Below, piece after piece: positions 2,129 to 42,171 of a DNA stretch of 64,000 nucleotides (positions are counted from its first letter, which is position 1; each line of letters opens with the position of its first letter). The position numbers and the translations under genes were made by a program. The notes under the pieces were generated by a model that was not told the DNA's origin, searched no databases, and worked only from the letters and a program-made list of their open reading frames with translations. The stretch is taken from NCBI GenBank assembly GCA_015661515.1, contig DQVX01000016.1, forward strand, positions 7-64,006, in the 5' to 3' direction. Source of the DNA: Nanobdellota archaeon (lineage in GTDB: Archaea; Aenigmatarchaeota; Aenigmatarchaeia; Aenigmatarchaeales; SZUA-1535).

Positions 2129-2373
2129 TTTAAAAGCACCTTGGCAACAGTTTCGGAAATGTTATATATAGGTGTGTTATTATTTATTTCTATTTCTTTT
2201 TCCACATCCTTAATTATTTTTTCTTCCATTTCTTCTATTCTTTCTCTTTCTTCAGAAATATAAAGCCATTCAGGATATTTTGCCAATTTCTTGTAATTTT
2301 CATCTTTTCCGACATCATAAAACGGAATTTTCATATCCCTTCCTTGCAATTTTTTGTATTTTTTCATCCTCAT
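2116..2373 (-). CDS. hypothetical small protein (85 aa)
   Basis: ORF only. Overlaps the upstream 137-aa ORF by 59 nt, which suggests coupling. Confidence 0.3.
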   Translation of the reverse strand: MRMKKYKKLQGRDMKIPFYDVGKDENYKKLAKYPEWLYISEERERIEEMEEKIIKDVEKEIEINNNTPIYNISETVAKVLLKCLK

Positions 2374-2728
2374 TTTCCCAAGGTGTTACCATAAGCTCAA
2401 TAACTTCTTCTTTAGTTAAGGTTTCACAAAGTTTTTGTGAATAATAGCACTTGTTTTCTTTATCCCAGTCAAACGGATATTCTTTAACTATACCATTATT
2501 TTCTTTTTGTATCCAAACTCTTTCAGTAATATTTCCTGCATTAAGATATTCGGCTAAAAACTGAGAAAACATGTATGAACAATCCTTAGGATTAAGCTCA
2601 TAAATCTTCCAATGATATTCTGGAAGTTTTTCACCAGAAGTTGTTATTATTTCTCTCAAAACTTCTTTTTCTTCAGGTTTTGCTATTTTCTTTCTTTTTA
2701 TACCTTTTAGTATTCTTTTATTAACCAA
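2315..2728 (-). CDS. hypothetical protein (137 aa)
   Basis: ORF with plausible composition; no recognisable motif. Confidence 0.4.
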   Translation of the reverse strand: MVNKRILKGIKRKKIAKPEEKEVLREIITTSGEKLPEYHWKIYELNPKDCSYMFSQFLAEYLNAGNITERVWIQKENNGIVKEYPFDWDKENKCYYSQKLCETLTKEEVIELMVTPWENEDEKIQKIARKGYENSVL

Positions 2729-3142
2729 ACTTGCTTTATATGGATTAAAAGATACATATCCATCAGCCGTAAAACTTAAAGGAGTATAATTCCTTCAATG
2801 TTCTTAGTCGGCACTTGCCTTGCAAGACCTATATAAATTTCTTCATTTTCTCTTTCTTCAAATTTTAAATGTGAAGTAATTTCATCTATATCTATGCCAT
2901 ATTCCCGAAGATAATTCTTTCTTATTCTATCTCTTGTTTCTTCTATTTTTCTTTTTTTCTCTTTTATTTCACTAATAGAAGTTGCATAAGGAAAACTCCA
3001 TGTAAGGAGGAGAGCGGTTTGGACTTAAAAGGAAAGCAGGAGCATTTGCCCCCGATCTCCTCCTAAACCTGTGAAAAATATAAACATAAGGAAAATTACA
3101 AATATCCAAATTTAAAAATTAAAAAAGAAAAAGAAATAAACT

Positions 3143-3289
3143 TCATTTTCTAAAGTTTTTATGTTTCTGAAAACACTCTCTACAATATACAGGTCTTCCT
3201 TCTTTTGGTTTAAATGGAACTGTACATTCCTTTCCACAATCGCTGCATATTGCTTTATGAAATGTTCTTTTTTGGAATCTCCTATTCAC
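3143..3289 (-). CDS. small CxxC-x17-CxxC zinc-ribbon protein (48 aa), not in ORF track
   Basis: GTG start sits 6 nt after a 'GGTGG' SD-like element. Protein 'VNRRFQKRTFHKAICSDCGKECTVPFKPKEGRPVYCRECFQKHKNFRK' has the conserved C-x2-C-G-K-E...VPF-x-P...RPVYC-x-x-C zinc-ribbon pattern of a widespread small-protein family. The antisense 67-aa ORF 3161..3364 is rejected in its favour. Confidence 0.6.
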   Translation of the reverse strand: MNRRFQKRTFHKAICSDCGKECTVPFKPKEGRPVYCRECFQKHKNFRK

Positions 3290-3422
3290 TTCTTTCCACC
3301 TTTTAAGCCTCGGAGAAAGAGATCAAAAACCAAACTCTTTCTCCAAGGACTTACTCTTAATTAAGGGAATTAATAGTATTTAAAGGTATGGGTCTCATTG
3401 AATTAAGAGTTTTGTCTAACAC

Positions 3423-4601
3423 TTACACCAAAGGTCCGAAAAAGCTGTAAAGAAGTATGGAAAGTATAAAAAACGAAATTATTTTTGTTATTTTAATAGC
3501 TTGTTCTTCGCTTAACTTTTCTTCTAGAATAGCTTTAATCATATGCCCACCATCTAAAGGATAAAGAGGAAGTATATTAACTACAGCTACAGCAAAACTT
3601 AAAAGTGATAAAATTGCAAGAAATTTAAATAAAAATTCAAAGCCATTGCATTTAGTTCCAACAACAATGCCTATAAAAGGAGCTTTCTCTATTTGTGGAT
3701 GTTCTCCCAAAGTTACAGTAAAATTGCCTTTATCCGTTTCTATTACTATACTATCTCCAGGTTTAAAAGTATAATTAGAAAAACTCCAATTAGTTAAAAT
3801 TCCTACTAAATAAATTCTTGCTGCAACATCTTCTGGATTTTGTTTTGCTAGCACAAAATTTGAGTAAAAACCAAAATCGAAAAATAGTTCTTTCCCATTA
3901 ATGCTTTTTATTATCATACCTTCTTTTATTCCGGCAAGCTCTGCAGGAGAATTTTCAACAACTTTTTTTACATATACTCCATCTACCAAGAAAAACCATA
4001 AATGAGATGCTAATAGAAATACTAAGAATGATACTACAATATTTGCAAAACTTCCTGCTGAAAAAACTCTAAGCTTTGCTATAAGTTTCTTTCTTTTTAA
4101 CTGCTTTTCATCAGGCTCTACAAATGCTCCTGGAAAAATTAAAAAAAGTAATAAACCTACAGATTTTAATCTTATTTTCTCAACCCTTGCCATTATTCCA
4201 TGAGCAAATTCGTGTGGAAACAGAATAAAGAAAATTGTTAATATCCATATCCAAAAAGGAAGAAATATATGAGCATAACCTATTTCAGCATTTTTTACAG
4301 GAGCTGGAAGTACAAGCTTTATTCCTGATTCTTTTATTTCATCTTTTGCAACTCTTACAGCATTTTCTATAAGGTAAAAAACTCCAAAAAACATGAAGTA
4401 AAAGCATATAATTATACTAATAATTCCTATTATTTTCCATGCACGCGGAGATTTTTTAGCAATTCTATCTATTATTTCAATAAATCTTTTAGTTTTATAA
4501 AGAACTACTAGACCTTCAACTTCTATTTTTTCTCTTTTTTTCCATATGGCAATTCCAACAAAAACTATAAAAGCTATAATTGAAAGTGTGTGAAAATCCA
4601 T
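3423..4601 (-). CDS. site-2 protease (M50 family, RseP/S2P-like) with PDZ domain
   Basis: HExxH sits in a TM helix ('FPHEFAHGIMA'). The second metal-ligand motif 'LPLYPLDGGHM' is present. Multiple TM segments. Confidence 0.8.
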   Translation of the reverse strand: MDFHTLSIIAFIVFVGIAIWKKREKIEVEGLVVLYKTKRFIEIIDRIAKKSPRAWKIIGIISIIICFYFMFFGVFYLIENAVRVAKDEIKESGIKLVLPAPVKNAEIGYAHIFLPFWIWILTIFFILFPHEFAHGIMARVEKIRLKSVGLLLFLIFPGAFVEPDEKQLKRKKLIAKLRVFSAGSFANIVVSFLVFLLASHLWFFLVDGVYVKKVVENSPAELAGIKEGMIIKSINGKELFFDFGFYSNFVLAKQNPEDVAARIYLVGILTNWSFSNYTFKPGDSIVIETDKGNFTVTLGEHPQIEKAPFIGIVVGTKCNGFEFLFKFLAILSLLSFAVAVVNILPLYPLDGGHMIKAILEEKLSEEQAIKITKIISFFILSILLYSFFGPLV

Positions 4602-4605
4602 ACAC

Positions 4606-5841
4606 TCACCATTTTACTTTCTCTATTTTTATTACATCAAGCTCAACCACTTTTGCTGGAACTCCTAAAATCTCTGCTACACTTGGACGAGTTCTTCCAT
4701 TATCTCCTGAAACCAGCTCTTTTACATAAAGTCCTGCAGAACATTTTATTATAAGCTCTACTGTTTTTGAATTTATATATTTCCATTTTATAGCTTTTAC
4801 TTCTCTTTTTCTAAGCTTATCAGCCCTTCTATGAAGAACTCTTTCAGGAGTTTGCTGGTTTATAACTCCAATAAGTTTTCTTAGTTTTTTAAGCTCTTCT
4901 TTTTTTACAGGTTTTTCAAATTTTACAACCACTCTATATGTTTTATCCGGAGAAGCTTCTTTAACTTTTCTTACCATTTCTCTTTCTACAAGTTTAAGTC
5001 CTTTTACTTTAACTTTTTTAGAAGCATTTATTTGTTTTGCAATTTCTTTAAGGTTTATTTTTCTTTTTTTAGGTTCAATTATTTCTATAACAAATGCTCT
5101 CCAGGCAAGGCATCGAGCATCTATATCTTCTCGACCCATTCCGTGAAATTTTGTATCTTTACCTTTAGTTGCTTTAAGCAAAGGTTTTGCTATAATTTGC
5201 TCTACAGAAGTTTTATATTTCCCTGGTGTTCCCCATTTGCATTGCGGAATTCCTCGAACTAATTTTTGATAATAACCAAAAATAAAGAGAGAAGATATTT
5301 GAATTTCTATTTTTGGTTTGCCTTTTTCCCAGTCAAAAAGTATAACAACTTCTGGCTTTTTTAATTCAGCTGTTTTTTTCATTTTCTGAGAAATTAATTT
5401 TCCTAACTCTCTGTTAAGCTCAGCCTTTAAAGGTTCGCAATAATCCATTCCTGCCAATTTCCACATTTCTTCTTCCTTTTCCAACATTTCTTTTGAAGGT
5501 CGATTTCCTACTAAGAATGTATTAAACTCTATTTTTTCAAGTTTTTTGATAGCCTTTTCAGCTATTTTTTCAAGTTTTTCAAATATATTTCCGCAAAAAT
5601 AACAATTAAGTTTTTTCTTAGAAGAGGTTTTTTTAGTTAACCTAAAATTATATTCATTGAAATTTTCTTGAGCAAAATTCTCAAGCTCTTGTGCTTCAAT
5701 AAGAAATGCTGCAAAATCTCTTATAATTCTACCTCTTTCTTTATTACTCATTCCACTAAGCATTTGAGCAAAAACTCTTCCTAAACAATTATCGCAAATA
5801 GGTTTTTGGAGTAAATTTTTTATTCTTTCAATTAACTCCAT
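4606..5841 (-). CDS. pus10: tRNA pseudouridine synthase Pus10 (psi54/psi55)
   Basis: 411 aa. N-terminal 'ICDNCLGRVFA' zinc-binding start typical of archaeal Pus10; THUMP-like middle; basic C-terminal catalytic domain. Confidence 0.6.
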   Translation of the reverse strand: MELIERIKNLLQKPICDNCLGRVFAQMLSGMSNKERGRIIRDFAAFLIEAQELENFAQENFNEYNFRLTKKTSSKKKLNCYFCGNIFEKLEKIAEKAIKKLEKIEFNTFLVGNRPSKEMLEKEEEMWKLAGMDYCEPLKAELNRELGKLISQKMKKTAELKKPEVVILFDWEKGKPKIEIQISSLFIFGYYQKLVRGIPQCKWGTPGKYKTSVEQIIAKPLLKATKGKDTKFHGMGREDIDARCLAWRAFVIEIIEPKKRKINLKEIAKQINASKKVKVKGLKLVEREMVRKVKEASPDKTYRVVVKFEKPVKKEELKKLRKLIGVINQQTPERVLHRRADKLRKREVKAIKWKYINSKTVELIIKCSAGLYVKELVSGDNGRTRPSVAEILGVPAKVVELDVIKIEKVKW

Positions 5842-26539: not shown

Positions 26540-28084
26540 TTATTTCACTCCAAATTTATCTAATAAAAAGCTTCGAATATCTTCGAAATCACTTCTTACT
26601 TTCGGAAACATATGTTTTTCAATTTGCTCTTTAAATTGGGTTATATAAGGACCTCGCTTTAGTGGATTAGCAATTTTTATTTCAGGAAATATTCCTTCTT
26701 TTTTCTCTTCTTCTTTTTCTTGTTCTTCTTCTGACGCTTCTTTTTTTGTTCCTATTATTTCTTCAATATATTTTTCAAATTCTATTTCTCTACATTTTAA
26801 TTCAAGCATTTTAAGTAGTAAAATATTTTGTGATATAAGATACATTTTGATATCAAAAGTTATATCTTCTATTTCTCCTCCAGGTAATTTAAGTCCAGCA
26901 CGGGCAACATCAATTTCTAAAAACTCATAATACATAAAGTTTGGATTCCAACCGTTCCTTCCATTTAACCAATCTTTAACAATTTCATCTGCAAGCTTAT
27001 CTGCGTATCTTGCATCATTTATAGGAACTATTTTTGCTTTTACTACCTCAAGTTCTTTTGCTTCATCTTTTGGAAGTTTTTTTCTCAAAAAAGGATAAAT
27101 ATCTGCTAATGGTGAAATTTTTAGTTTTTTACCATATAGAATTATATCCCTAACTACAGGATCGTAAGGATATACAAGCTCTTTAAGAGGCGCTCTCTCT
27201 ATAAATCCTAATTCAAACACTCTTAAATTCAACCAAGCCCAAAGCTTAATACAATTAACAAAAGTTGCTTGACCAGAAGATTCAAAAGTTGAAAATGGCA
27301 TTGCTATTCTTTCCGATGGTATTTCTGATCTTAATTTAAGCATTTTATATCGAGCGATATAAGGTTTAAGCCAATTTCTGTATTCTTCTACAAGTTTTTT
27401 TCTTGAATTAACAAGAGCTTGTAATCTTTCATATCTTTCTATAACTTCTCTTCCAAAAAGCTCTTTCCATTCTTTGTAAAGCTTGTTTTTTGTCGCAAGA
27501 ATAACAGCTTCTGCTTTAGATACTTCAAGCTTTTTCGCAATTTCATCAGGATTTTCTTCATCTCCTAATTTCATAAAGTCATAAATTATAGTCGGCCATC
27601 GTGAAACAATTGATCTTAGAGAAACTCCTTCGCCTGTATGAACATCTACTTGATCTACAAAAATAGCTCTTAATCTATGTTCATCATTTCTTTTCAAAGC
27701 ATCTACTATTTCTTTATATTTTCTTAAATCATGAAGTAACATTTCATATTCTCCAACTATTTGAGCTGCTGTAGCAATTCCAACTCTTATTTTTTCTTCA
27801 AGTGTACTTTTTTGAGCTTGAGTTAATTGATAATATTGTGCATGTGTTGGAGAAACTTCAATCCATTCATCCACTTTTTTAACCACCCAATCATCTTTAG
27901 GTAACCAGAATATGAATGAATAAAAAATCCCGGTTGCAGAACCAATAGAGCCTGTGAAGTTTAAAGTAGAAGCGGTACCTATGCTACCTTTTCCTGGTAC
28001 CCAACAATGAAACCATTCAAGCCATTTACTTTTTGGCTCGCTTTTTATTTGTGAGAGATCAAATATAGGCTTTTCAACAACCAT
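26540..28084 (-). CDS. hypothetical all-alpha protein (514 aa), translationally coupled to the TIM-barrel gene
   Basis: Long ORF with no recognisable motif. A 1-nt gap separates its stop from the next start. Acidic 'EEEQEKEEEKKE' stretch near the C-terminus. Confidence 0.5.
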   Translation of the reverse strand: MVVEKPIFDLSQIKSEPKSKWLEWFHCWVPGKGSIGTASTLNFTGSIGSATGIFYSFIFWLPKDDWVVKKVDEWIEVSPTHAQYYQLTQAQKSTLEEKIRVGIATAAQIVGEYEMLLHDLRKYKEIVDALKRNDEHRLRAIFVDQVDVHTGEGVSLRSIVSRWPTIIYDFMKLGDEENPDEIAKKLEVSKAEAVILATKNKLYKEWKELFGREVIERYERLQALVNSRKKLVEEYRNWLKPYIARYKMLKLRSEIPSERIAMPFSTFESSGQATFVNCIKLWAWLNLRVFELGFIERAPLKELVYPYDPVVRDIILYGKKLKISPLADIYPFLRKKLPKDEAKELEVVKAKIVPINDARYADKLADEIVKDWLNGRNGWNPNFMYYEFLEIDVARAGLKLPGGEIEDITFDIKMYLISQNILLLKMLELKCREIEFEKYIEEIIGTKKEASEEEQEKEEEKKEGIFPEIKIANPLKRGPYITQFKEQIEKHMFPKVRSDFEDIRSFLLDKFGVK

Positions 28085-28730: not shown

Positions 28731-28938
28731 AAAATTATTTGCAATTAAAGGAAAAACTCTAGAAGAAACTCTTGAAAATATAAGTTTCCTTATAATAGTT
28801 TTTTCGGCTATTTTAGTTTCCATAGGTATAGCTCTGGGAAGTTTTTATAAAGGTGTTATTCTTTTAGCAAGTTTAGGTTCATTTACTTTGCTTATAGGAA
28901 TAATAATTTTTGTAATTGCTGAGGTTATGAGAGAATAG
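28705..28938 (+). CDS. small membrane protein (77 aa)
   Basis: Two hydrophobic helices; overlaps the bud32 3' end. Confidence 0.3.
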   Translation: MEDILKEIKKLFAIKGKTLEETLENISFLIIVFSAILVSIGIALGSFYKGVILLASLGSFTLLIGIIIFVIAEVMRE

Positions 28939-29425
28939 TTTTTACTCTTTTTGTTTCATAATATAAAAGCTTTTCTTTGAAATCTTTTCCGAAAGGAGTA
29001 TAATTTCCTATGGTTTTATCTTTTCTTATTACTCTATGACAAGGAATAATGATAAGCATAGGATTATAAGTAAGAGCTTTTATTACTTGATAAATATTTA
29101 ATTTTGTTATATTTGCAAGTTCTGAATAAGTTATTGTTTTTCCAGGCTGTAATTTAAGAAGTGTAGCATATACTTGGTTATATTTATAGCGAGAAACATC
29201 AACTAAAACTTTTTCTCCTTTTAAAACCTTTTCTATTATTTTTTCAAGTTTTTTATCAAGTTCTCTGTTTTCGACTATTTTTGCTTTCAAAGAGTGAAAT
29301 TTTCTTATTTTTTCTGCTCTTGAAATCGCTTTTTCGCGTGTATAATGTAAAGAATATGCTATAGGTTTTTTCTTTTTATAAACGAGCCATACACATTCAA
29401 GTTTATTCCCTAATATTCTTATCAT
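28925..29425 (-). CDS. ogt: methylated-DNA--protein-cysteine methyltransferase (O6-methylguanine-DNA methyltransferase)
   Basis: 'IIIPCHRVI' active-site PCHR motif; preceding HTH 'TYSELANI'. Confidence 0.85.
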   Translation of the reverse strand: MIRILGNKLECVWLVYKKKKPIAYSLHYTREKAISRAEKIRKFHSLKAKIVENRELDKKLEKIIEKVLKGEKVLVDVSRYKYNQVYATLLKLQPGKTITYSELANITKLNIYQVIKALTYNPMLIIIPCHRVIRKDKTIGNYTPFGKDFKEKLLYYETKRVKTILS

Positions 29426-29688
29426 TTTTTATACACACACTTCAGTTTTATTTTGAGAAGTTTATAATTAAGAATTAAATGTATGCATCCTAGAACACTC
29501 ATTAAAATTCCTGCATAGAAATGCACTGTTTTTAATGTTGTTTTATCCATGGCAAAATAATCCCAACTACTTATTTTTGCAATTTTGCCTGAAGGTGATA
29601 TCCACAGCCCTATACCTGTAAATATGAGCATAAAAAATATTACTACAAGTAATAATGAAATAAAAGCTCTTACTTTTTCTATTTCCAT
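29422..29688 (-). CDS. small membrane protein (88 aa)
   Basis: Two TM helices; 4-nt overlaps on both sides give an operon context with the radical SAM gene and ogt. Confidence 0.4.
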   Translation of the reverse strand: MEIEKVRAFISLLLVVIFFMLIFTGIGLWISPSGKIAKISSWDYFAMDKTTLKTVHFYAGILMSVLGCIHLILNYKLLKIKLKCVYKK

Positions 29689-29691
29689 TTA

Positions 29692-31275
29692 TTACACCGA
29701 TATTTTGCTTACATCATAGAAACTTTTATAATCTATCATTTTCTCAAGCTTTTTAATATCTCTTTTGTAGAAATCTTCTTTAAGTTTTCTTTTCTTTTTT
29801 CTTTCCCATTCTTTTATACTCATTGAATATTTCTTCTGTATTTTATCCCTATACCATTGAGGAATCACATTAAATGCACAGAAAGGTACTATTTTTCCAT
29901 CAGGTTGTGCATAATGTATTGTGCATCTTTGTACTCTAGCTATATCATAGTTATAAAGATCCATAAAGTGCATTAGCCCTATAAATAGAGCTTTATGATG
30001 AATATCTCCCAAGGAGCGGTAATCATGTTTTATTATTGCTTTGAAAAGCATTTTGGCAAAATCTAATCCTTTTGGTTGAGATTTTTTATCAATAAAGCTT
30101 CTTAGTTTCCAAAGCACTTTAAGTGCTACAAGAATTTTTGATTTTCCTTTTTCTATTTCTTCTGTTTTTTCTTCAAGATATTCAAGCAAACCTTCGACAT
30201 CAAGAAATCTTGGAAGAGGTATTATTTTACCATCTTTACCTTTAAATAAATATGTTGCCATGCCACATGCAAAATGTGAAGATAAGTAATATTGTGGTTT
30301 TCCTGTAAAAACTTCTATGAAGCGAGAAAGAGCATGTGGTGTCGGAACAGGATAAAAATCTTCTGGCTCTACTATACCAGTTTCGGCTAATTTTTCTATT
30401 ACTTCTGGAATAGTTATTCTATATTTCTTAACCTCTGCTTTAGTCAATTTCCCTACCAATGAAACAGGTTGATAATTAATTCCTCTTACTATATCCATGT
30501 ATTTTATTCCAAATTTAAGTATATTTCCAACTTCATGATCATTGAAAGTTTTTACAACAGTCGGAACAAGCACTATTCCCAAACCTGCTTTTCTGCAGTT
30601 TTCTATTACAAGAGGTATTTCCCAATAATTTTTGAAATTTGTTTTTGGGCTAAGACCATCAAAACTAAGATAAACAGTATTAACACCAGCTTTTCTAACT
30701 TTTATTGCAAACTCAGGATCTAATGCAAGTCTTATACCATTTGTATTTAATTGTACATGGTCAAATCCTTCTTCTTTGGCTATCTCAATTATTCTAATTA
30801 TATCATCTCTAAGCGTTGGTTCTCCACCTGTAAATTGCACAGCTTTTGCTGGAATAGGTTTCATTGCTCTTAATTTTCTAAGCATTTTTCTTATTGTTTT
30901 TAGATCTGGCTCATAAACATAGCCCATGGCTTTTGCATAGAAAAAGCAATAAAAACATTGCAAATCACAGCGATTTGTAACAACAATATTTGCTAAAGCT
31001 GTATGCGACTTGTGTCTTGTACATATTCCACAATTTTTTGGGCAAGGATATTTTGGTTTTATACCATTTTTCACTCCTTTGCCATCACGAGCAAATTTCA
31101 TTGCCCTTAAATACATTTCATAGCTTGCATAGTAAAGATCTTCAAATTTTCCATGCTTAGGACAAGTTTTTCGAATATATACTTTTCCTTTTCTTTCAAA
31201 AATTACAGCTGGAAGGATTCTTAGACATTCAGGACAAAGGCTTTGAGTTTCAGCTATTTTTTTCATGTGAATCAA
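29692..31275 (-). CDS. radical SAM protein with N-terminal Zn-ribbon (527 aa); possibly tetraether-lipid-synthase (Tes/GDGT-MAS)-like
   Basis: 'CPECL...CPKHG' N-terminal ribbon; 'NRCDLQCFYCFF' Cx3CxxC; long C-terminal extension without SPASM or B12 motifs. Confidence 0.6.
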   Translation of the reverse strand: MIHMKKIAETQSLCPECLRILPAVIFERKGKVYIRKTCPKHGKFEDLYYASYEMYLRAMKFARDGKGVKNGIKPKYPCPKNCGICTRHKSHTALANIVVTNRCDLQCFYCFFYAKAMGYVYEPDLKTIRKMLRKLRAMKPIPAKAVQFTGGEPTLRDDIIRIIEIAKEEGFDHVQLNTNGIRLALDPEFAIKVRKAGVNTVYLSFDGLSPKTNFKNYWEIPLVIENCRKAGLGIVLVPTVVKTFNDHEVGNILKFGIKYMDIVRGINYQPVSLVGKLTKAEVKKYRITIPEVIEKLAETGIVEPEDFYPVPTPHALSRFIEVFTGKPQYYLSSHFACGMATYLFKGKDGKIIPLPRFLDVEGLLEYLEEKTEEIEKGKSKILVALKVLWKLRSFIDKKSQPKGLDFAKMLFKAIIKHDYRSLGDIHHKALFIGLMHFMDLYNYDIARVQRCTIHYAQPDGKIVPFCAFNVIPQWYRDKIQKKYSMSIKEWERKKKRKLKEDFYKRDIKKLEKMIDYKSFYDVSKISV

Positions 31276-31806
31276 CTTTTAATACTTTTTAAATATTTAA
31301 AAAGTTTAAAAAATTATATAAAGCTTGTGGTCGGAAAAACTTTAGAAGAAATAGAACGTGAGATATATTCACTTTTTGCAGAAGTAGCAAGAGCTCTTGG
31401 ATATAGTGAGATTCACGGAAAAATTATTGCAGCCCTTTTAGTTAAAGGCGGAGAAGCTTCTCTTCAAGAGCTTGCTAAAAGTACAAAATACTCTCCTTCA
31501 ATGATTTCACTTTCCTTAGATTTGCTTGAATTTTTTGAAGTGATTAAAAAAGTTAAGCATACTGGCGATAGAAAGTTATATGTAAAGCTTCAAGGAAGTT
31601 TATTGGATAGTTTGAAAAGAGCTTTTATCATAAAATTACAGAAAAATGTAGAAAATTCTCTTGCAAAATTCGAGGAATATAAAAGAGAGCTCAGAAAAAG
31701 TAAAGAAAAAGATGCAAAAAAGGTAATGAAAACCTTAGAAATATTAGAAAATGAACTTAAAAGATTAAAGAAGTTTTTAAATATTGCAATGAACATAAAA
31801 TTTTAA
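31243..31806 (+). CDS. winged-helix transcriptional regulator (probable true start near 31320, TTG/GTG)
   Basis: 'ASLQELAKSTKYSPSMISLSLDLLEFFEVIKKVKHTGDRKLYVKL' wHTH followed by a coiled-coil tail. The first 30 nt overlap the divergent radical SAM start. Confidence 0.5.
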   Translation: MSFSYFFHVNQLLILFKYLKSLKNYIKLVVGKTLEEIEREIYSLFAEVARALGYSEIHGKIIAALLVKGGEASLQELAKSTKYSPSMISLSLDLLEFFEVIKKVKHTGDRKLYVKLQGSLLDSLKRAFIIKLQKNVENSLAKFEEYKRELRKSKEKDAKKVMKTLEILENELKRLKKFLNIAMNIKF

Positions 31807-31808
31807 TT

Positions 31809-31937
31809 ATGCTTGGAATATGCGCTGTTTGCGGTAAGCCTGCAAAGCTTAGATGTAAAGTTTGCGGTGCAGTTGTATGTGAGAACTGTATTTTAAGTTA
31901 TGGATGTAAGCTTTGTAAAGGAATAATTAATTATTGA
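31809..31937 (+). CDS. 8-Cys mini-protein (42 aa, four CxxC pairs), not in ORF track
   Basis: 'MLGICAVCGKPAKLRCKVCGAVVCENCILSYGCKLCKGIINY' is a double zinc ribbon. It starts 2 nt after the regulator's stop. Confidence 0.5.
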   Translation: MLGICAVCGKPAKLRCKVCGAVVCENCILSYGCKLCKGIINY

Positions 31938-31943
31938 TAAAAT

Positions 31944-33848
31944 TTATCCAAACCACCAATACCCTGCCCAGGGCCATGGCATTTGAAATGCTATATCTGC
32001 TGTTCTCGCTGTTGAGCTTCGGACACAAAAATTAAATGCAGAATTTTCTTGGAAAGACATAAATTTACCTTCTTGGAGCGAAACCCATATACATTGTCTG
32101 CAGCAATCCACTTCATTTTTACATTCTCCAGTCTCATCATACCATTTTGAACAAATATTATCGCATATTTTTGTTGGATCTTCGCAATCTCCTATCCAAA
32201 ACTGAGCATAAGCAAAACAAGGAGAAGCTAAGTAAAAATTATGCATTCCCGTTTCTTTAAAACCGCGATAAAAAAACTCTAATTTTCTATTCGCATTCAT
32301 TACTTTTATTCCGCATATTTTTGAGTTCTTCAAAGCATCCATGAGCTCTTTTTTCTTATAAGTTTTAGGAGCCATACCTGGACCTTTTATGCATATAGCA
32401 TTCCTACATTTTTCAGCTTCTCCTTTCACAGTTTCATATTTTGCTTCAAGTGTGTGAGCAATAAAAATAGGTGCGAATGTTACAGAAACTCCGTATAAAC
32501 AATTTTTGACTGTTCTTTCTTTCAACTCTTCATTTTCTAAAATTTCTTTTACTTTTCCAAGAGGTTTAGCTTCAATTTTTCCTGTATTTGGGTTATAATC
32601 TATTTCATATACTATCCAGTCTTTCATGTTTTTTGATGTGATATCCATTAAATCAACTTCTTGAATACTGTATCCTGTTGGAGATGAGGGGTCTTTCTTA
32701 AGTAAAAGCGTTTTTATTTTTGTTCTTCCGTTTTCTGTAACTTTTTTTAGTAAAAGAGACCATGCAGCGGTTTGGGTAATTTCTTTAGCAATTTCAGTTC
32801 CATCATTAAAGTAATAATATTGAGCATCTTCATCGGTTATATATCCAGCATTTTTCAAAGTTTCTATAATTACTTCAGGAGAAGCTATTCCCAAAGCAGC
32901 ACCGCTAAAAGAGCATATCCATGCTTGGTTATTCTCAATAAGAATTTTTAGTTTTTGGAAAAATATTGGTGCTCTTTTTTTAAGTTCTGTCGAAGCTTTT
33001 TTAATATTAGTTTTCGAAGGAAGAATAAAAGCCAAATTCTTAACATTAAAGTACTTTTTTGCTTTTTCTGTATAGTCTTTTAAACTTTGTTTGAATTTGT
33101 CAATCCTTTTAGCAGCTTCTTTATCCCCACCTTTTTCTAATCCTTTCGCAATCTCATCTAAGGCAGAAAGCATATCGTCTCCAGTTTCAGCTCTAATCAC
33201 ATATAATTTACCATCCTTTACCATAGGTTCTTTAACTTTTTTCCCACCAATTTTAATTGAGCCTCCAGTAAAATGTATTACTGCTTTTCCAAGTTTTGTT
33301 GTACCCCTTCCAAGTAGTTTAGCTGCTTCTGTTGCAAGTTTTATTCCAGTTCCGTATTTGAATATAAGCTTTCCAGCTATTTTCCCACCTTTTATTATAC
33401 CTTTACTGATTGGCCCACCAAGAAATATAAGTGCAACATCTAAGTAAAACCACCCGCTCCACGCATCACTTTCGACGTTTTCATATCTATCCCAGTAAAT
33501 TATATATTTAGGGTCTCCTAAAGCAGGGAGAGCTTCTTTTGAAATCATATTAAGTTCTTGTGGAAGAATAATCGGAACTCCACATGGCTTTTTTTCTAAA
33601 TAAGGAACTTCACATATTACAACATCTCCGTTACTCTTTCCTCCATATCTGTACGAATAATTATATTCTTCATAATTTTTTGCCACTTCAATAAAAGCGT
33701 CAACTAATCTTTTCTGTGTATTTAAAGCTTCCATTTTCATAAGAAAATCTTTTCCAAAAAGCAAATATGCAAGACCAAAAACAACTAAAGCAAAAACTAT
33801 TATTCTAACTAAAAATTCTAAATTAAGAGATAGAGCTTTTCTTATCAT
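31944..33848 (-). CDS. large signal-anchored extracellular protein with Cys-rich, aromatic C-terminus
   Basis: N-terminal TM 'IVFALVVFGLAYLLF'. The C-terminal 100 aa carry about 14 Cys ('DCEDPTKICDNICSKWYDETGECKNEVDCCRQC') and end 'WPWAGYWWFG'. Confidence 0.5.
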   Translation of the reverse strand: MIRKALSLNLEFLVRIIVFALVVFGLAYLLFGKDFLMKMEALNTQKRLVDAFIEVAKNYEEYNYSYRYGGKSNGDVVICEVPYLEKKPCGVPIILPQELNMISKEALPALGDPKYIIYWDRYENVESDAWSGWFYLDVALIFLGGPISKGIIKGGKIAGKLIFKYGTGIKLATEAAKLLGRGTTKLGKAVIHFTGGSIKIGGKKVKEPMVKDGKLYVIRAETGDDMLSALDEIAKGLEKGGDKEAAKRIDKFKQSLKDYTEKAKKYFNVKNLAFILPSKTNIKKASTELKKRAPIFFQKLKILIENNQAWICSFSGAALGIASPEVIIETLKNAGYITDEDAQYYYFNDGTEIAKEITQTAAWSLLLKKVTENGRTKIKTLLLKKDPSSPTGYSIQEVDLMDITSKNMKDWIVYEIDYNPNTGKIEAKPLGKVKEILENEELKERTVKNCLYGVSVTFAPIFIAHTLEAKYETVKGEAEKCRNAICIKGPGMAPKTYKKKELMDALKNSKICGIKVMNANRKLEFFYRGFKETGMHNFYLASPCFAYAQFWIGDCEDPTKICDNICSKWYDETGECKNEVDCCRQCIWVSLQEGKFMSFQENSAFNFCVRSSTARTADIAFQMPWPWAGYWWFG

Positions 33849-42074: not shown

Positions 42075-42171
42075 AGCGGGGTAGGGCAGCCAGGAGTGCC
42101 CGCCGGGCTCATAATATATTATTTAATGAGACACCCGGAGGTCGGTGGTTCAAATCCACCCCCCGCTACCA
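42075..42171 (+). tRNA. initiator tRNA-Met(CAT) with canonical 19-nt 37/38 intron; CCA encoded
   Basis: A1:U72 acceptor pair ('AGCGGGG/CCCCGCT'); three G-C pairs at the base of the anticodon stem ('CCGGG/CCCGG'); loop 'CTCATA|A' split by intron 42114..42132; T-arm 'GGTGG TTCAAAT CCACC'. Confidence 0.85.

Follow-up and report, generated by a model that had tools for sequence, protein, structure and literature searches.

The locus described here lies in a 64,000-nt stretch of contig DQVX01000016.1 from a Nanobdellota archaeon. This whole stretch is referred to as the window, and all positions are given relative to it; related loci and contigs fetched for comparison carry numbers beginning with L. 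At the locus, a radical S-adenosylmethionine (SAM) gene, tes, is divergent from the gene for a small winged-helix regulator, which is followed in turn by a very short gene for a micro-protein with eight cysteines, and a palindromic element occupies most of the space between the two divergent starts. The features, with the evidence on which each is drawn, are as follows:

29692..31266, minus strand: tes, tetraether lipid synthase (GDGT-MAS), 524 aa from the ATG at 31266 (NCBIfam, PDB and Pfam matches, gene calls, homologues)
31267..31326: divergent intergenic control region of 60 bp between tes and the regulator gene (starts set by homologue alignments)
31274..31315: operator-like dyad (position weight matrix (PWM), palindrome search, independent inverted-repeat tool)
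31314..31322: TATA-like box TTATATAAA (TTTATATAA on the tes strand), candidate tes promoter element (recurrence across loci)
31327..31806, plus strand: GbsR/MarR-type winged-helix transcription regulator, 159 aa, GTG start (homologues, profile, AlphaFold2 (AF2) model, Foldseek)
31809..31937, plus strand: eight-Cys micro-protein, 42 aa (Pfam, AF2 model, homologue alignment, conserved position)

The boundaries of the two divergent genes depend on the choice of start codon. The longest radical SAM open reading frame (ORF) has 527 codons (29692..31275, minus strand) and contains the motif CDLQCFYC (Cx3Cx2C), and an earlier note on this DNA, made from the letters alone, had described it as overlapping the 5' end of the regulator gene. 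That overlap is an artefact of ORF calling, since only the longest TTG-initiated ORFs (31275 and 31243) produce it. For the enzyme, gene calls and homologues agree on the ATG at 31266, which gives a protein of 524 aa. The regulator homologues, which are about 155-160 aa long among the 120 listed (the exceptions being four longer gene calls of 179-201 aa), align from the GTG at 31327, and the L010 protein, 83% identical, has an ATG at that spot. With the starts placed by the homologue N-termini, the genes are divergent and separated by an A+T-rich gap of 60 bp (31267..31326), and the overlap is rejected. The other structural claims of the earlier note stand: the pair is divergent (tes on the minus strand, the regulator on the plus strand), and the 527-codon frame has its Cx3CxxC motif, with a zinc ribbon and no SPASM domain according to Pfam. 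On the downstream side, the regulator ORF ends with a TAA at 31804-31806 and the ATG of the micro-protein (31809) follows 2 nt further, and the 42-residue frame indeed contains four CxxC pairs (C5/8, C16/19, C24/27 and C33/36).

By sequence comparison, the radical SAM enzyme is Tes (GDGT-MAS). It scores 701.2 bits against the NCBIfam equivalog model for the tetraether lipid synthase Tes (NF045702; cut-off 450 bits), covering model positions 2-485 of 486, and its residues 6-493 match residues 24-517 of the GDGT-MAS structure 7TOL (chain A) with E = 2e-139. The only Pfam matches are PF04055 (Radical_SAM, 95 bits) and the N-terminal, rubredoxin-like zinc ribbon PF23545 (“HMPTM”, 73 bits), with no SPASM/twitch domain and no peptide-recognition (RRE) domain, and all NCBIfam models for maturases of ribosomally synthesized and post-translationally modified peptides (RiPPs) remain far under their cut-offs. 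The profile search that had been suggested therefore comes out for Tes/GDGT-MAS and against the RiPP maturase families. A clear assignment to Tes with no link to the neighbours had been named as the outcome that would speak against a connection within the locus; the assignment is clear, but the link to the regulator proves to be the most strongly conserved feature of the locus. Compared with the Tes proteins of M. jannaschii (MJ0619; 7TOL) and M. acetivorans (MA_1486; PMC8941075), the enzyme matches end to end and shares the zinc-ribbon and radical SAM architecture. The enzyme itself is not distinct, and what is new is its genomic context, namely the dedicated divergent regulator and the conserved palindrome.

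Zeng et al. 2022 (PMC8941075) suspected that the matches to Tes in DPANN genomes were host contamination. Here, the rest of the window is made up of archaeal housekeeping genes (GluRS, a Bud32-type kinase, SRP54, S2, Pus10, Nre, ThyX, SHMT and an ArlI-type ATPase), its GC content is uniform at ~30%, and syntenic Tes loci are found on contigs of up to 727 kb. On these grounds tes is native to a DPANN-type (Aenigmatarchaeota-like) genome, and the contamination explanation does not fit here. In one related locus (L029), the Tes gene (2166-5336, minus strand) is interrupted by an intein and encodes 1056 aa, with the divergent regulator and the palindrome retained; NCBIfam holds a dedicated “Tes, intein-containing” model.

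A profile of the regulator was used to retrieve 80 species-level genome loci, mostly from Aenigmatarchaeota. Tes is directly divergent from the regulator in 56 of these, with regulator identities down to ~45%, and the count rises to 57-58 if L029, where Tes is split by the intein, and probably L032 are added; L062, a complete chromosome, was left out for Tes because the stretch concerned is N-masked. The Tes-regulator arrangement is kept in neighbourhoods that are otherwise different, and it is conserved across Aenigmatarchaeota-type DPANN archaea. In the 17 Tes-less loci with enough upstream DNA, the neighbours are heterogeneous and provide no alternative conserved partner for the regulator; since these neighbours are mutually unrelated, Tes is the regulator's only conserved partner.

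The regulator has 346 homologues, many of which are labelled “GbsR (MarR family)” by JGI, and several come from Aenigmatarchaeota metagenome-assembled genomes. A 19-member profile finds MJ223 (PDB 1KU9) as the best solved relative (E = 1e-7). The AF2 model (mean predicted local distance difference test (pLDDT) score 90.7) consists of helices at residues 6-23, 28-39, 46-53 and 57-69, a beta wing, and then two long helices at 92-123 and 129-155, and its best Foldseek matches are 4NB5 (4e-7), 1KU9 (2e-6) and 5JBR (1e-5). The fold, these matches and the MJ223 profile match agree with the winged-helix regulator that had been proposed from the letters. Scores against family models are low, at 16.4 for Pfam MarR (cut-off 24.6) and 22 bits for the NCBIfam choline-regulator equivalog CudC (cut-off 218 bits). 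On its predicted fold and distant similarity, we class the protein as GbsR-type, and not as a choline regulator. Across the family, the recognition-helix segment S-x-S-x-x-SLSLD-x-LE is invariant.

With the GbsR-type MarR regulators (GbsR, OpuAR and OpcR of B. subtilis, and MJ223/1KU9; PMC6207618), the window protein shares a length of ~155 aa, a winged helix at the N-terminus and, towards the C-terminus, long helices for dimerisation, and like them it is a local regulator encoded beside its presumed target. Unlike the osmoprotectant regulators of this type, its presumed target is a lipid enzyme, and no GbsR protein is known to have a Cys-rich partner translated along with it. The same paper, a review of the GbsR family, describes “no consistent picture” in the gene neighbourhoods of archaeal GbsR-type genes, whereas the family studied here has a consistent neighbourhood (Tes). 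It also reports that the aromatic-cage inducer region for choline and glycine betaine is absent from the MJ223 template, and that non-osmostress GbsR groups appear to use different effectors (PMC6207618).

The tes/regulator intergenic regions have in common a 24-bp palindrome, AACTTTTAAT-N4-ATTAAAAGTT, with 9-nt arms that are nearly invariant across loci and a 6-nt spacer that is fixed in 54 of 61 regions. The geometry is also conserved: the tes ATG is followed, at a distance of 6-9 nt, by the palindrome and then by TTAAATAT (75-92% conserved), and a second box, of the TATATAAA type, lies 4-20 nt ahead of the regulator start in most loci. A PWM was trained without the window and its three nearest loci, and was applied with a threshold of 15 bits. 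Within 741 kb it gives 58 matches of at least 15 bits, 55 of them in tes-upstream regions. The 3 matches outside this set likewise precede a Tes gene: in two cases the N-terminal part of the enzyme is unaligned (intein-split in L029), and the third is in L037. In L037, tes is convergent with the regulator gene and the palindrome is located ~190 nt upstream of tes, so that the palindrome follows tes rather than the regulator. One further exact-pattern palindrome, in L039 (7148-7172), falls within coding sequence and differs in its spacer, and was judged to be due to chance.

In the window itself, the PWM has a single strong match (25 bits, at 31271), and the rest of the 64 kb does not exceed 15.6 bits. 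The 24-bp palindrome (31274-31297, AACTTTTAATACTTTTTAAATATT) agrees with the consensus at 16 of 18 arm positions. Overlapping it is a perfect 22-bp palindrome (31284-31305, ACTTTTTAAATATTTAAAAAGT), which is unique in the window and of which 0.08 copies are expected by chance. An independent repeat finder describes the whole as an inverted repeat of 21+21 nt (31274-31315), which amounts to four half-sites of the AACTTTT/AAAAGTT type, and the dyad begins 7 nt from the tes ATG. Nested double palindromes are also present in the peptide-bearing sister loci. The TATA-like box ends 4 nt before the regulator start codon, and its recurrence across loci makes it a putative promoter element of tes. The invariance of the recognition helix is in keeping with that of the half-site.

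The micro-protein of the window (MLGICAVCGKPAKLRCKVCGAVVCENCILSYGCKLCKGIINY) is encoded identically on 4 independent metagenome contigs, and homologues hold the same position in dozens of other loci. In 19 aligned homologues (38-69% identity), all 8 cysteines are invariant, as are G9, G20 and A21. Gene callers missed the gene in L005-L008, where a 43-codon ORF with all eight cysteines is found just 3' of the regulator stop (4 nt away in L005, 67 nt in L008). In the set of 80 regulator loci, 24 have the micro-protein gene, invariably as the final member of the regulator operon. On the regulator tree, the peptide-adjacent loci group in a single clade (the peptide is absent from L012 and L013 and displaced in L029), with L084 as one distant case. 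In this regulator-adjacent clade, in L084 and in L133, the peptide gene begins 2-5 nt past the regulator stop or overlaps it. A second type of peptide, ~50 aa long, is homologous to that of the window (pairwise E = 2e-7) and closes a regulator-Na+/H+ antiporter-peptide operon in ten loci.

Essentially the same association is seen from the side of the peptide. A metagenome search with a 7-sequence peptide alignment recovered 39 loci, and the regulator is immediately upstream of the peptide in 35 of the 36 that have enough upstream DNA. The exception is L109, where a radical SAM/SPASM gene is placed between the two; this insertion is found in two loci in all (L029 and L109). Tes is present in nearly every peptide-query locus with enough upstream DNA. 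An exhaustive hidden Markov model (HMM) search of 1.84 billion representative proteins gave 20 significant matches, all of which, except for one marginal match, are stand-alone proteins of 42-67 aa. In L133, from a distant lineage, the gene for a 44%-identical regulator shares 4 nt with the start of the peptide gene, and neither Tes nor the palindrome is nearby. The peptide is tied most closely to the regulator gene, less closely to Tes, and absolutely to neither. Co-occurrence of the peptide with the regulator, which had been put forward as a check, is therefore conserved, and the pair persists without Tes in L133. The idea that the peptide is a metal-binding partner or sensor of the regulator fares well as regards the gene, which is a genuine, conserved and coupled partner; its role as an accessory is part of the mechanism proposed below. 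An NCBI/nr record for the window peptide names it “orotate phosphoribosyltransferase [Nanoarchaeota archaeon]”, which is almost certainly a propagated misannotation.

The cysteine spacing of the window peptide, C-x2-C-x7-C-x2-C-x4-C-x2-C-x5-C-x2-C, fits the B-box-1 pattern. In Pfam it scores 27.0 against zf-B_box (PF00643), just above the cut-off of 24.1, with weaker matches to ANCHR-BBOX and zf-HIT, and the AF2 model (pLDDT 85.6) is a confident all-beta knuckle fold. Peptides of the second type score 14.0 bits or have no match against PF00643, and are under every Pfam cut-off, the best weak match being Prok-RING_2. B-box, HIT, ZZ and PHD domains are binuclear cross-brace modules, and from the spacing and the model we predict that the micro-protein is a B-box/HIT-like binuclear metal-binding protein, without claiming membership of the eukaryotic B-box family. 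PDB sequence searches with the peptide are marginal, and include rubredoxin and rubrerythrin knuckle matches with E values of 0.05-0.8.

Three kinds of known protein resemble the micro-protein to different degrees. With B-box, HIT and prokaryotic RING treble-clef fingers (PF00643, PF22586, PF04438, PF14445), it shares the eight-ligand spacing and exceeds the B-box gathering score; unlike eukaryotic B-box domains, it is free-standing, archaeal and only 42 aa long, and common descent is unproven. With the Haloferax C(P)XCG proteins HVO_2753 and HVO_0758 (PMC10716476, PMC11241148), it shares a stand-alone form of fewer than 70 aa and CxxCG knuckles (CAVCG and CKVCG within 42 aa). Homology to HVO_2753/aS21 was not found in the PDB search (E = 3.5 for the HVO_2753-like chain 9FHL_C), and unlike that type the window peptide has a B-box-like cysteine spacing and a gene coupled to a winged-helix regulator. 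Finally, Brz of Halobacterium (PMC2253796) is a small zinc-finger protein encoded beside a membrane-related gene which it regulates (bop transcription), and is a precedent for a small archaeal zinc-finger protein that affects transcription beside such a gene.

Some loci have additional genes around or within the tes-regulator-peptide unit. A Na+/H+ exchanger (PF00999) is encoded inside the regulator-peptide operon in 10 loci (e.g., L036 4634-5983 and L067 6494-7846, both plus strand) and downstream of tes in four further loci (L018, L021, L055 and L056), and its recurrence at the tes control locus suggests a connection between the two. In 8 loci, a polytopic membrane protein of 187-208 aa is encoded between tes and the regulator (L005 4436-4999 and L109 406-1032, both plus strand, and six others), with its stop 1 nt ahead of the regulator start. 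It has no match in Pfam, NCBIfam or PDB, and a PAP2-type lipid phosphatase identity, suspected from an SAH...KAHD motif, was accordingly not confirmed. A radical SAM/SPASM protein of 476 aa, extended at its N-terminus by a Cys-rich segment, is also found around the locus (L109 1507-2937 and L029 5863-7290, both minus strand), as well as downstream of tes in L014, L019, L022 and L054. Its best matches are AhbD/NirJ-type (heme-type) models, all below their cut-offs, and it could be another lipid-modifying radical SAM enzyme.

Taking these features together, we favour a reading in which a local repressor controls tes, with the metal-binding micro-protein as an accessory, and we consider this reading somewhat more likely than not. 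A MarR-type local repressor that is divergent from its target is a classical design. In the proposed mechanism, the regulator would bind the palindrome as a dimer, and in the window and its clade two dimers may occupy the four half-sites. From its position between the TATA box and the start of tes, the regulator would repress tes until a signal releases the repression, and it would probably repress its own divergent operon as well. The micro-protein, whose synthesis would be kept proportional to that of the regulator by translational coupling, would fold around two metal ions in a cross-brace knuckle fold of the B-box/HIT-like kind, and would serve as an accessory of the regulator (e.g., a metal- or redox-sensitive co-regulator or an anti-repressor), rather than as a substrate of the radical SAM enzyme. 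The antiporter and the polytopic membrane protein in the sister-clade operons suggest a regulon concerned with membrane permeability and ion homeostasis, a theme that fits the physiological role usually ascribed to tetraethers. Regulator, palindrome and micro-protein together look like a first candidate genetic switch for the synthesis of membrane-spanning lipids.

Several observations weigh against this account. The PWM scan finds no palindrome at loci where the regulator is not beside Tes; that the regulator recognizes the palindrome is something we infer from their co-location, and the element could instead be a Tes-specific promoter or 5' untranslated region (5'-UTR) feature that is read by something else. 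For the peptide model, Foldseek returns nothing significant (E about 1), the top entries being the ZFYVE19 B-box, the ZNHIT1 HIT finger, the PML B1 box, ZZ and PHD. No fusion of peptide and regulator is present among the matches from the search of 1.84 billion representative proteins, so that a Rosetta-stone argument for the pair is not supported. In addition, three distant members (L131, L132 and L134) have the peptide with no regulator nearby. The peptide is absent from 56 of the 80 regulator-profile loci and from ~70% of the Tes-regulator loci; L012 and L013, the GTDB species nearest to the window, are among those that lack it, and it is thus dispensable for Tes control.

These distant members and frequent absences are also points in favour of a different view of the micro-protein, according to which it is unrelated to both the regulator and Tes and is a generic zinc-finger protein (e.g., one that binds nucleic acids or the ribosome) riding at the 3' end of the operon. 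The peptide gene is always terminal, moreover, and insertions of an antiporter or a radical SAM/SPASM gene before it are tolerated. We regard this view as unlikely, because the regulator is directly upstream in 35 of 36 peptide-query loci, because the close coupling of the two frames is kept not only in the regulator-adjacent clade but also in L084 and in the Tes-less L133, and because the association persists through three operon architectures.

The palindrome might alternatively be a promoter or 5'-UTR element of tes alone, such as one bound by another factor or one forming an A-U hairpin just ahead of the start codon, with the regulator controlling other genes. It accompanies tes in every case, at a constant distance of 6-9 nt from the ATG, it is lacking where regulator genes are apart from tes, and its arms could pair as RNA. 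On the other hand, dimeric winged-helix proteins classically have a footprint of just this kind, a 9+6+9-nt dyad, recognition helix and half-site are both invariant, and the regulator has no other conserved partner. The arms are also so nearly invariant that there is no compensatory variation pointing to RNA pairing. This description of the palindrome is, in our judgement, improbable to about the same degree as the unrelated zinc finger.

Much less likely is that the micro-protein is a rubredoxin-like iron protein that donates electrons to Tes or takes part in its maturation. Its two CxxCG knuckles are as in rubredoxin, which also appears among its marginal matches, and its gene is near that of a reductant-requiring enzyme with a rubredoxin-like N-terminal domain of its own (PF23545). 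The peptide, however, has eight cysteines in B-box spacing rather than the four of rubredoxin, and it is co-transcribed with the regulator and not with tes, is present in only 24 of 80 loci, and occurs with no tes nearby.

The idea that the micro-protein is a RiPP-like precursor modified by a radical SAM enzyme, which corresponds to the Cys-rich substrate peptide offered as an alternative in the earlier note, is rejected as highly improbable: a small Cys-rich ORF does lie beside a radical SAM gene, and L029 and L109 have a divergent radical SAM/SPASM gene right beside the peptide gene, but the adjacent enzyme in the window passes the Tes equivalog and 7TOL tests and is a lipid enzyme with no SPASM domain, the peptide has no leader/core layout and instead shows zinc-finger spacing, conservation along its whole length and a compact fold predicted with confidence, the SPASM gene is beside the peptide in 2 of >60 peptide loci and best matches heme-type proteins, and co-occurrence of peptide and enzyme is not obligate in either direction (the peptide being absent from ~70% of loci, and present with no Tes nearby in L131-L134).

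Returning to the favoured reading of a local repressor with an accessory micro-protein, we found no paper linking Tes to a transcriptional regulator in full-text literature searches, in which Tes in Aenigmatarchaeota is discussed in environmental surveys only. The control of the conversion from a diether bilayer to membrane-spanning glycerol dialkyl glycerol tetraethers (GDGTs) is an acknowledged gap, and the regulation of GDGT formation was stated by Zeng et al. 2022 to be not understood (PMC8941075). The locus provides a concrete candidate, consisting of a small regulator, a defined 24-bp candidate operator where tes begins and a putative metal-binding micro-protein that is optional, each of them short enough for synthesis and for trial in vitro or in a tractable archaeon. 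Because GDGT abundances underpin palaeotemperature proxies, the control of GDGT synthesis has wider relevance. The locus further speaks for a native, regulated Tes in DPANN genomes of the Aenigmatarchaeota type, rather than a product of binning contamination from hosts, and it adds a conserved family of ~45-aa proteins that is mostly missed by standard gene callers. What is new here is the regulatory context of Tes and this under-annotated family; the enzyme was already known, and the functional steps are those of a proposed mechanism in uncultivated organisms.

A more specific version of the same reading, which we put forward tentatively and as rather doubtful, is that regulator and micro-protein make up a sensor of two parts, a DNA-binding repressor and a metal- or redox-sensitive co-factor, which turns tetraether monolayer formation, and in sister clades also the antiporter, on and off in DPANN archaea. 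If true, this circuit would be the first that is dedicated to the transcriptional control of Tes, and would imply that archaea with reduced genomes actively remodel their own, possibly host-derived, diether lipids under ion, pH or redox stress.

On the other side of tes, two further genes follow in the same direction:

29422..29688, minus strand: DUF4405 gene, 88 aa (Pfam/NCBIfam)
28925..29425, minus strand: Ogt/MGMT-like gene, 166 aa (Pfam/NCBIfam)

The gap between tes and the DUF4405 gene (DUF4405 being cytochrome-b-like) is 3 nt, and the DUF4405 and Ogt/MGMT-like genes overlap by 4 nt; both are probably co-transcribed with tes, in this genome only. Only the closest relatives (L001-L003) share this gene order, and the DUF4405 gene is missing from L010. 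In more distant loci, FEN1 or CTP synthase is found after tes instead of this pair.

In many loci (L014 7528-7692 and L017 7198-7362, both minus strand, and ~12 others), a separate four-CxxC protein of 54 aa (aS21/HVO_2753 type, PF07754), which belongs to a different family from the eight-Cys peptide, is encoded downstream of the regulator-peptide pair, at a distance of ~1 kb. In the sediment clade, a convergent ORF of 75-77 aa (MVEFETIETKEIKFGNNKFLE...) lies just 3' of the peptide gene (L005 5649-5876, L008 5709-5942 and L109 3168-3395, all minus strand), with no Pfam annotation in the gene calls. A convergent HD-domain gene abuts or overlaps the micro-protein gene in L131 (2998-3552), L133 (5138-5692) and L134 (253-1023, all minus strand); the peptide family may have in it a second conserved neighbour. 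In the window, the gene convergent with that of the micro-protein is a 634-aa ORF (31944-33848, minus strand), with 6 nt between the stops; its N-terminus includes a hydrophobic segment and its C-terminus is rich in Cys and Trp, it belongs to no Pfam or NCBIfam family, and it is kept only in the nearest contigs. A 514-aa ORF (26540-28084, minus strand), likewise with no Pfam or NCBIfam family, is syntenic in L001-L003.

A scan for sigma-70 promoters and terminators gave fewer matches than shuffled sequence and is uninformative for an archaeon. The Rfam scan has no match in the tes-regulator region, and its sole match in the window is a tRNA at 42075-42168 (plus strand), which at 94 nt is longer than standard and so probably has an intron inside.

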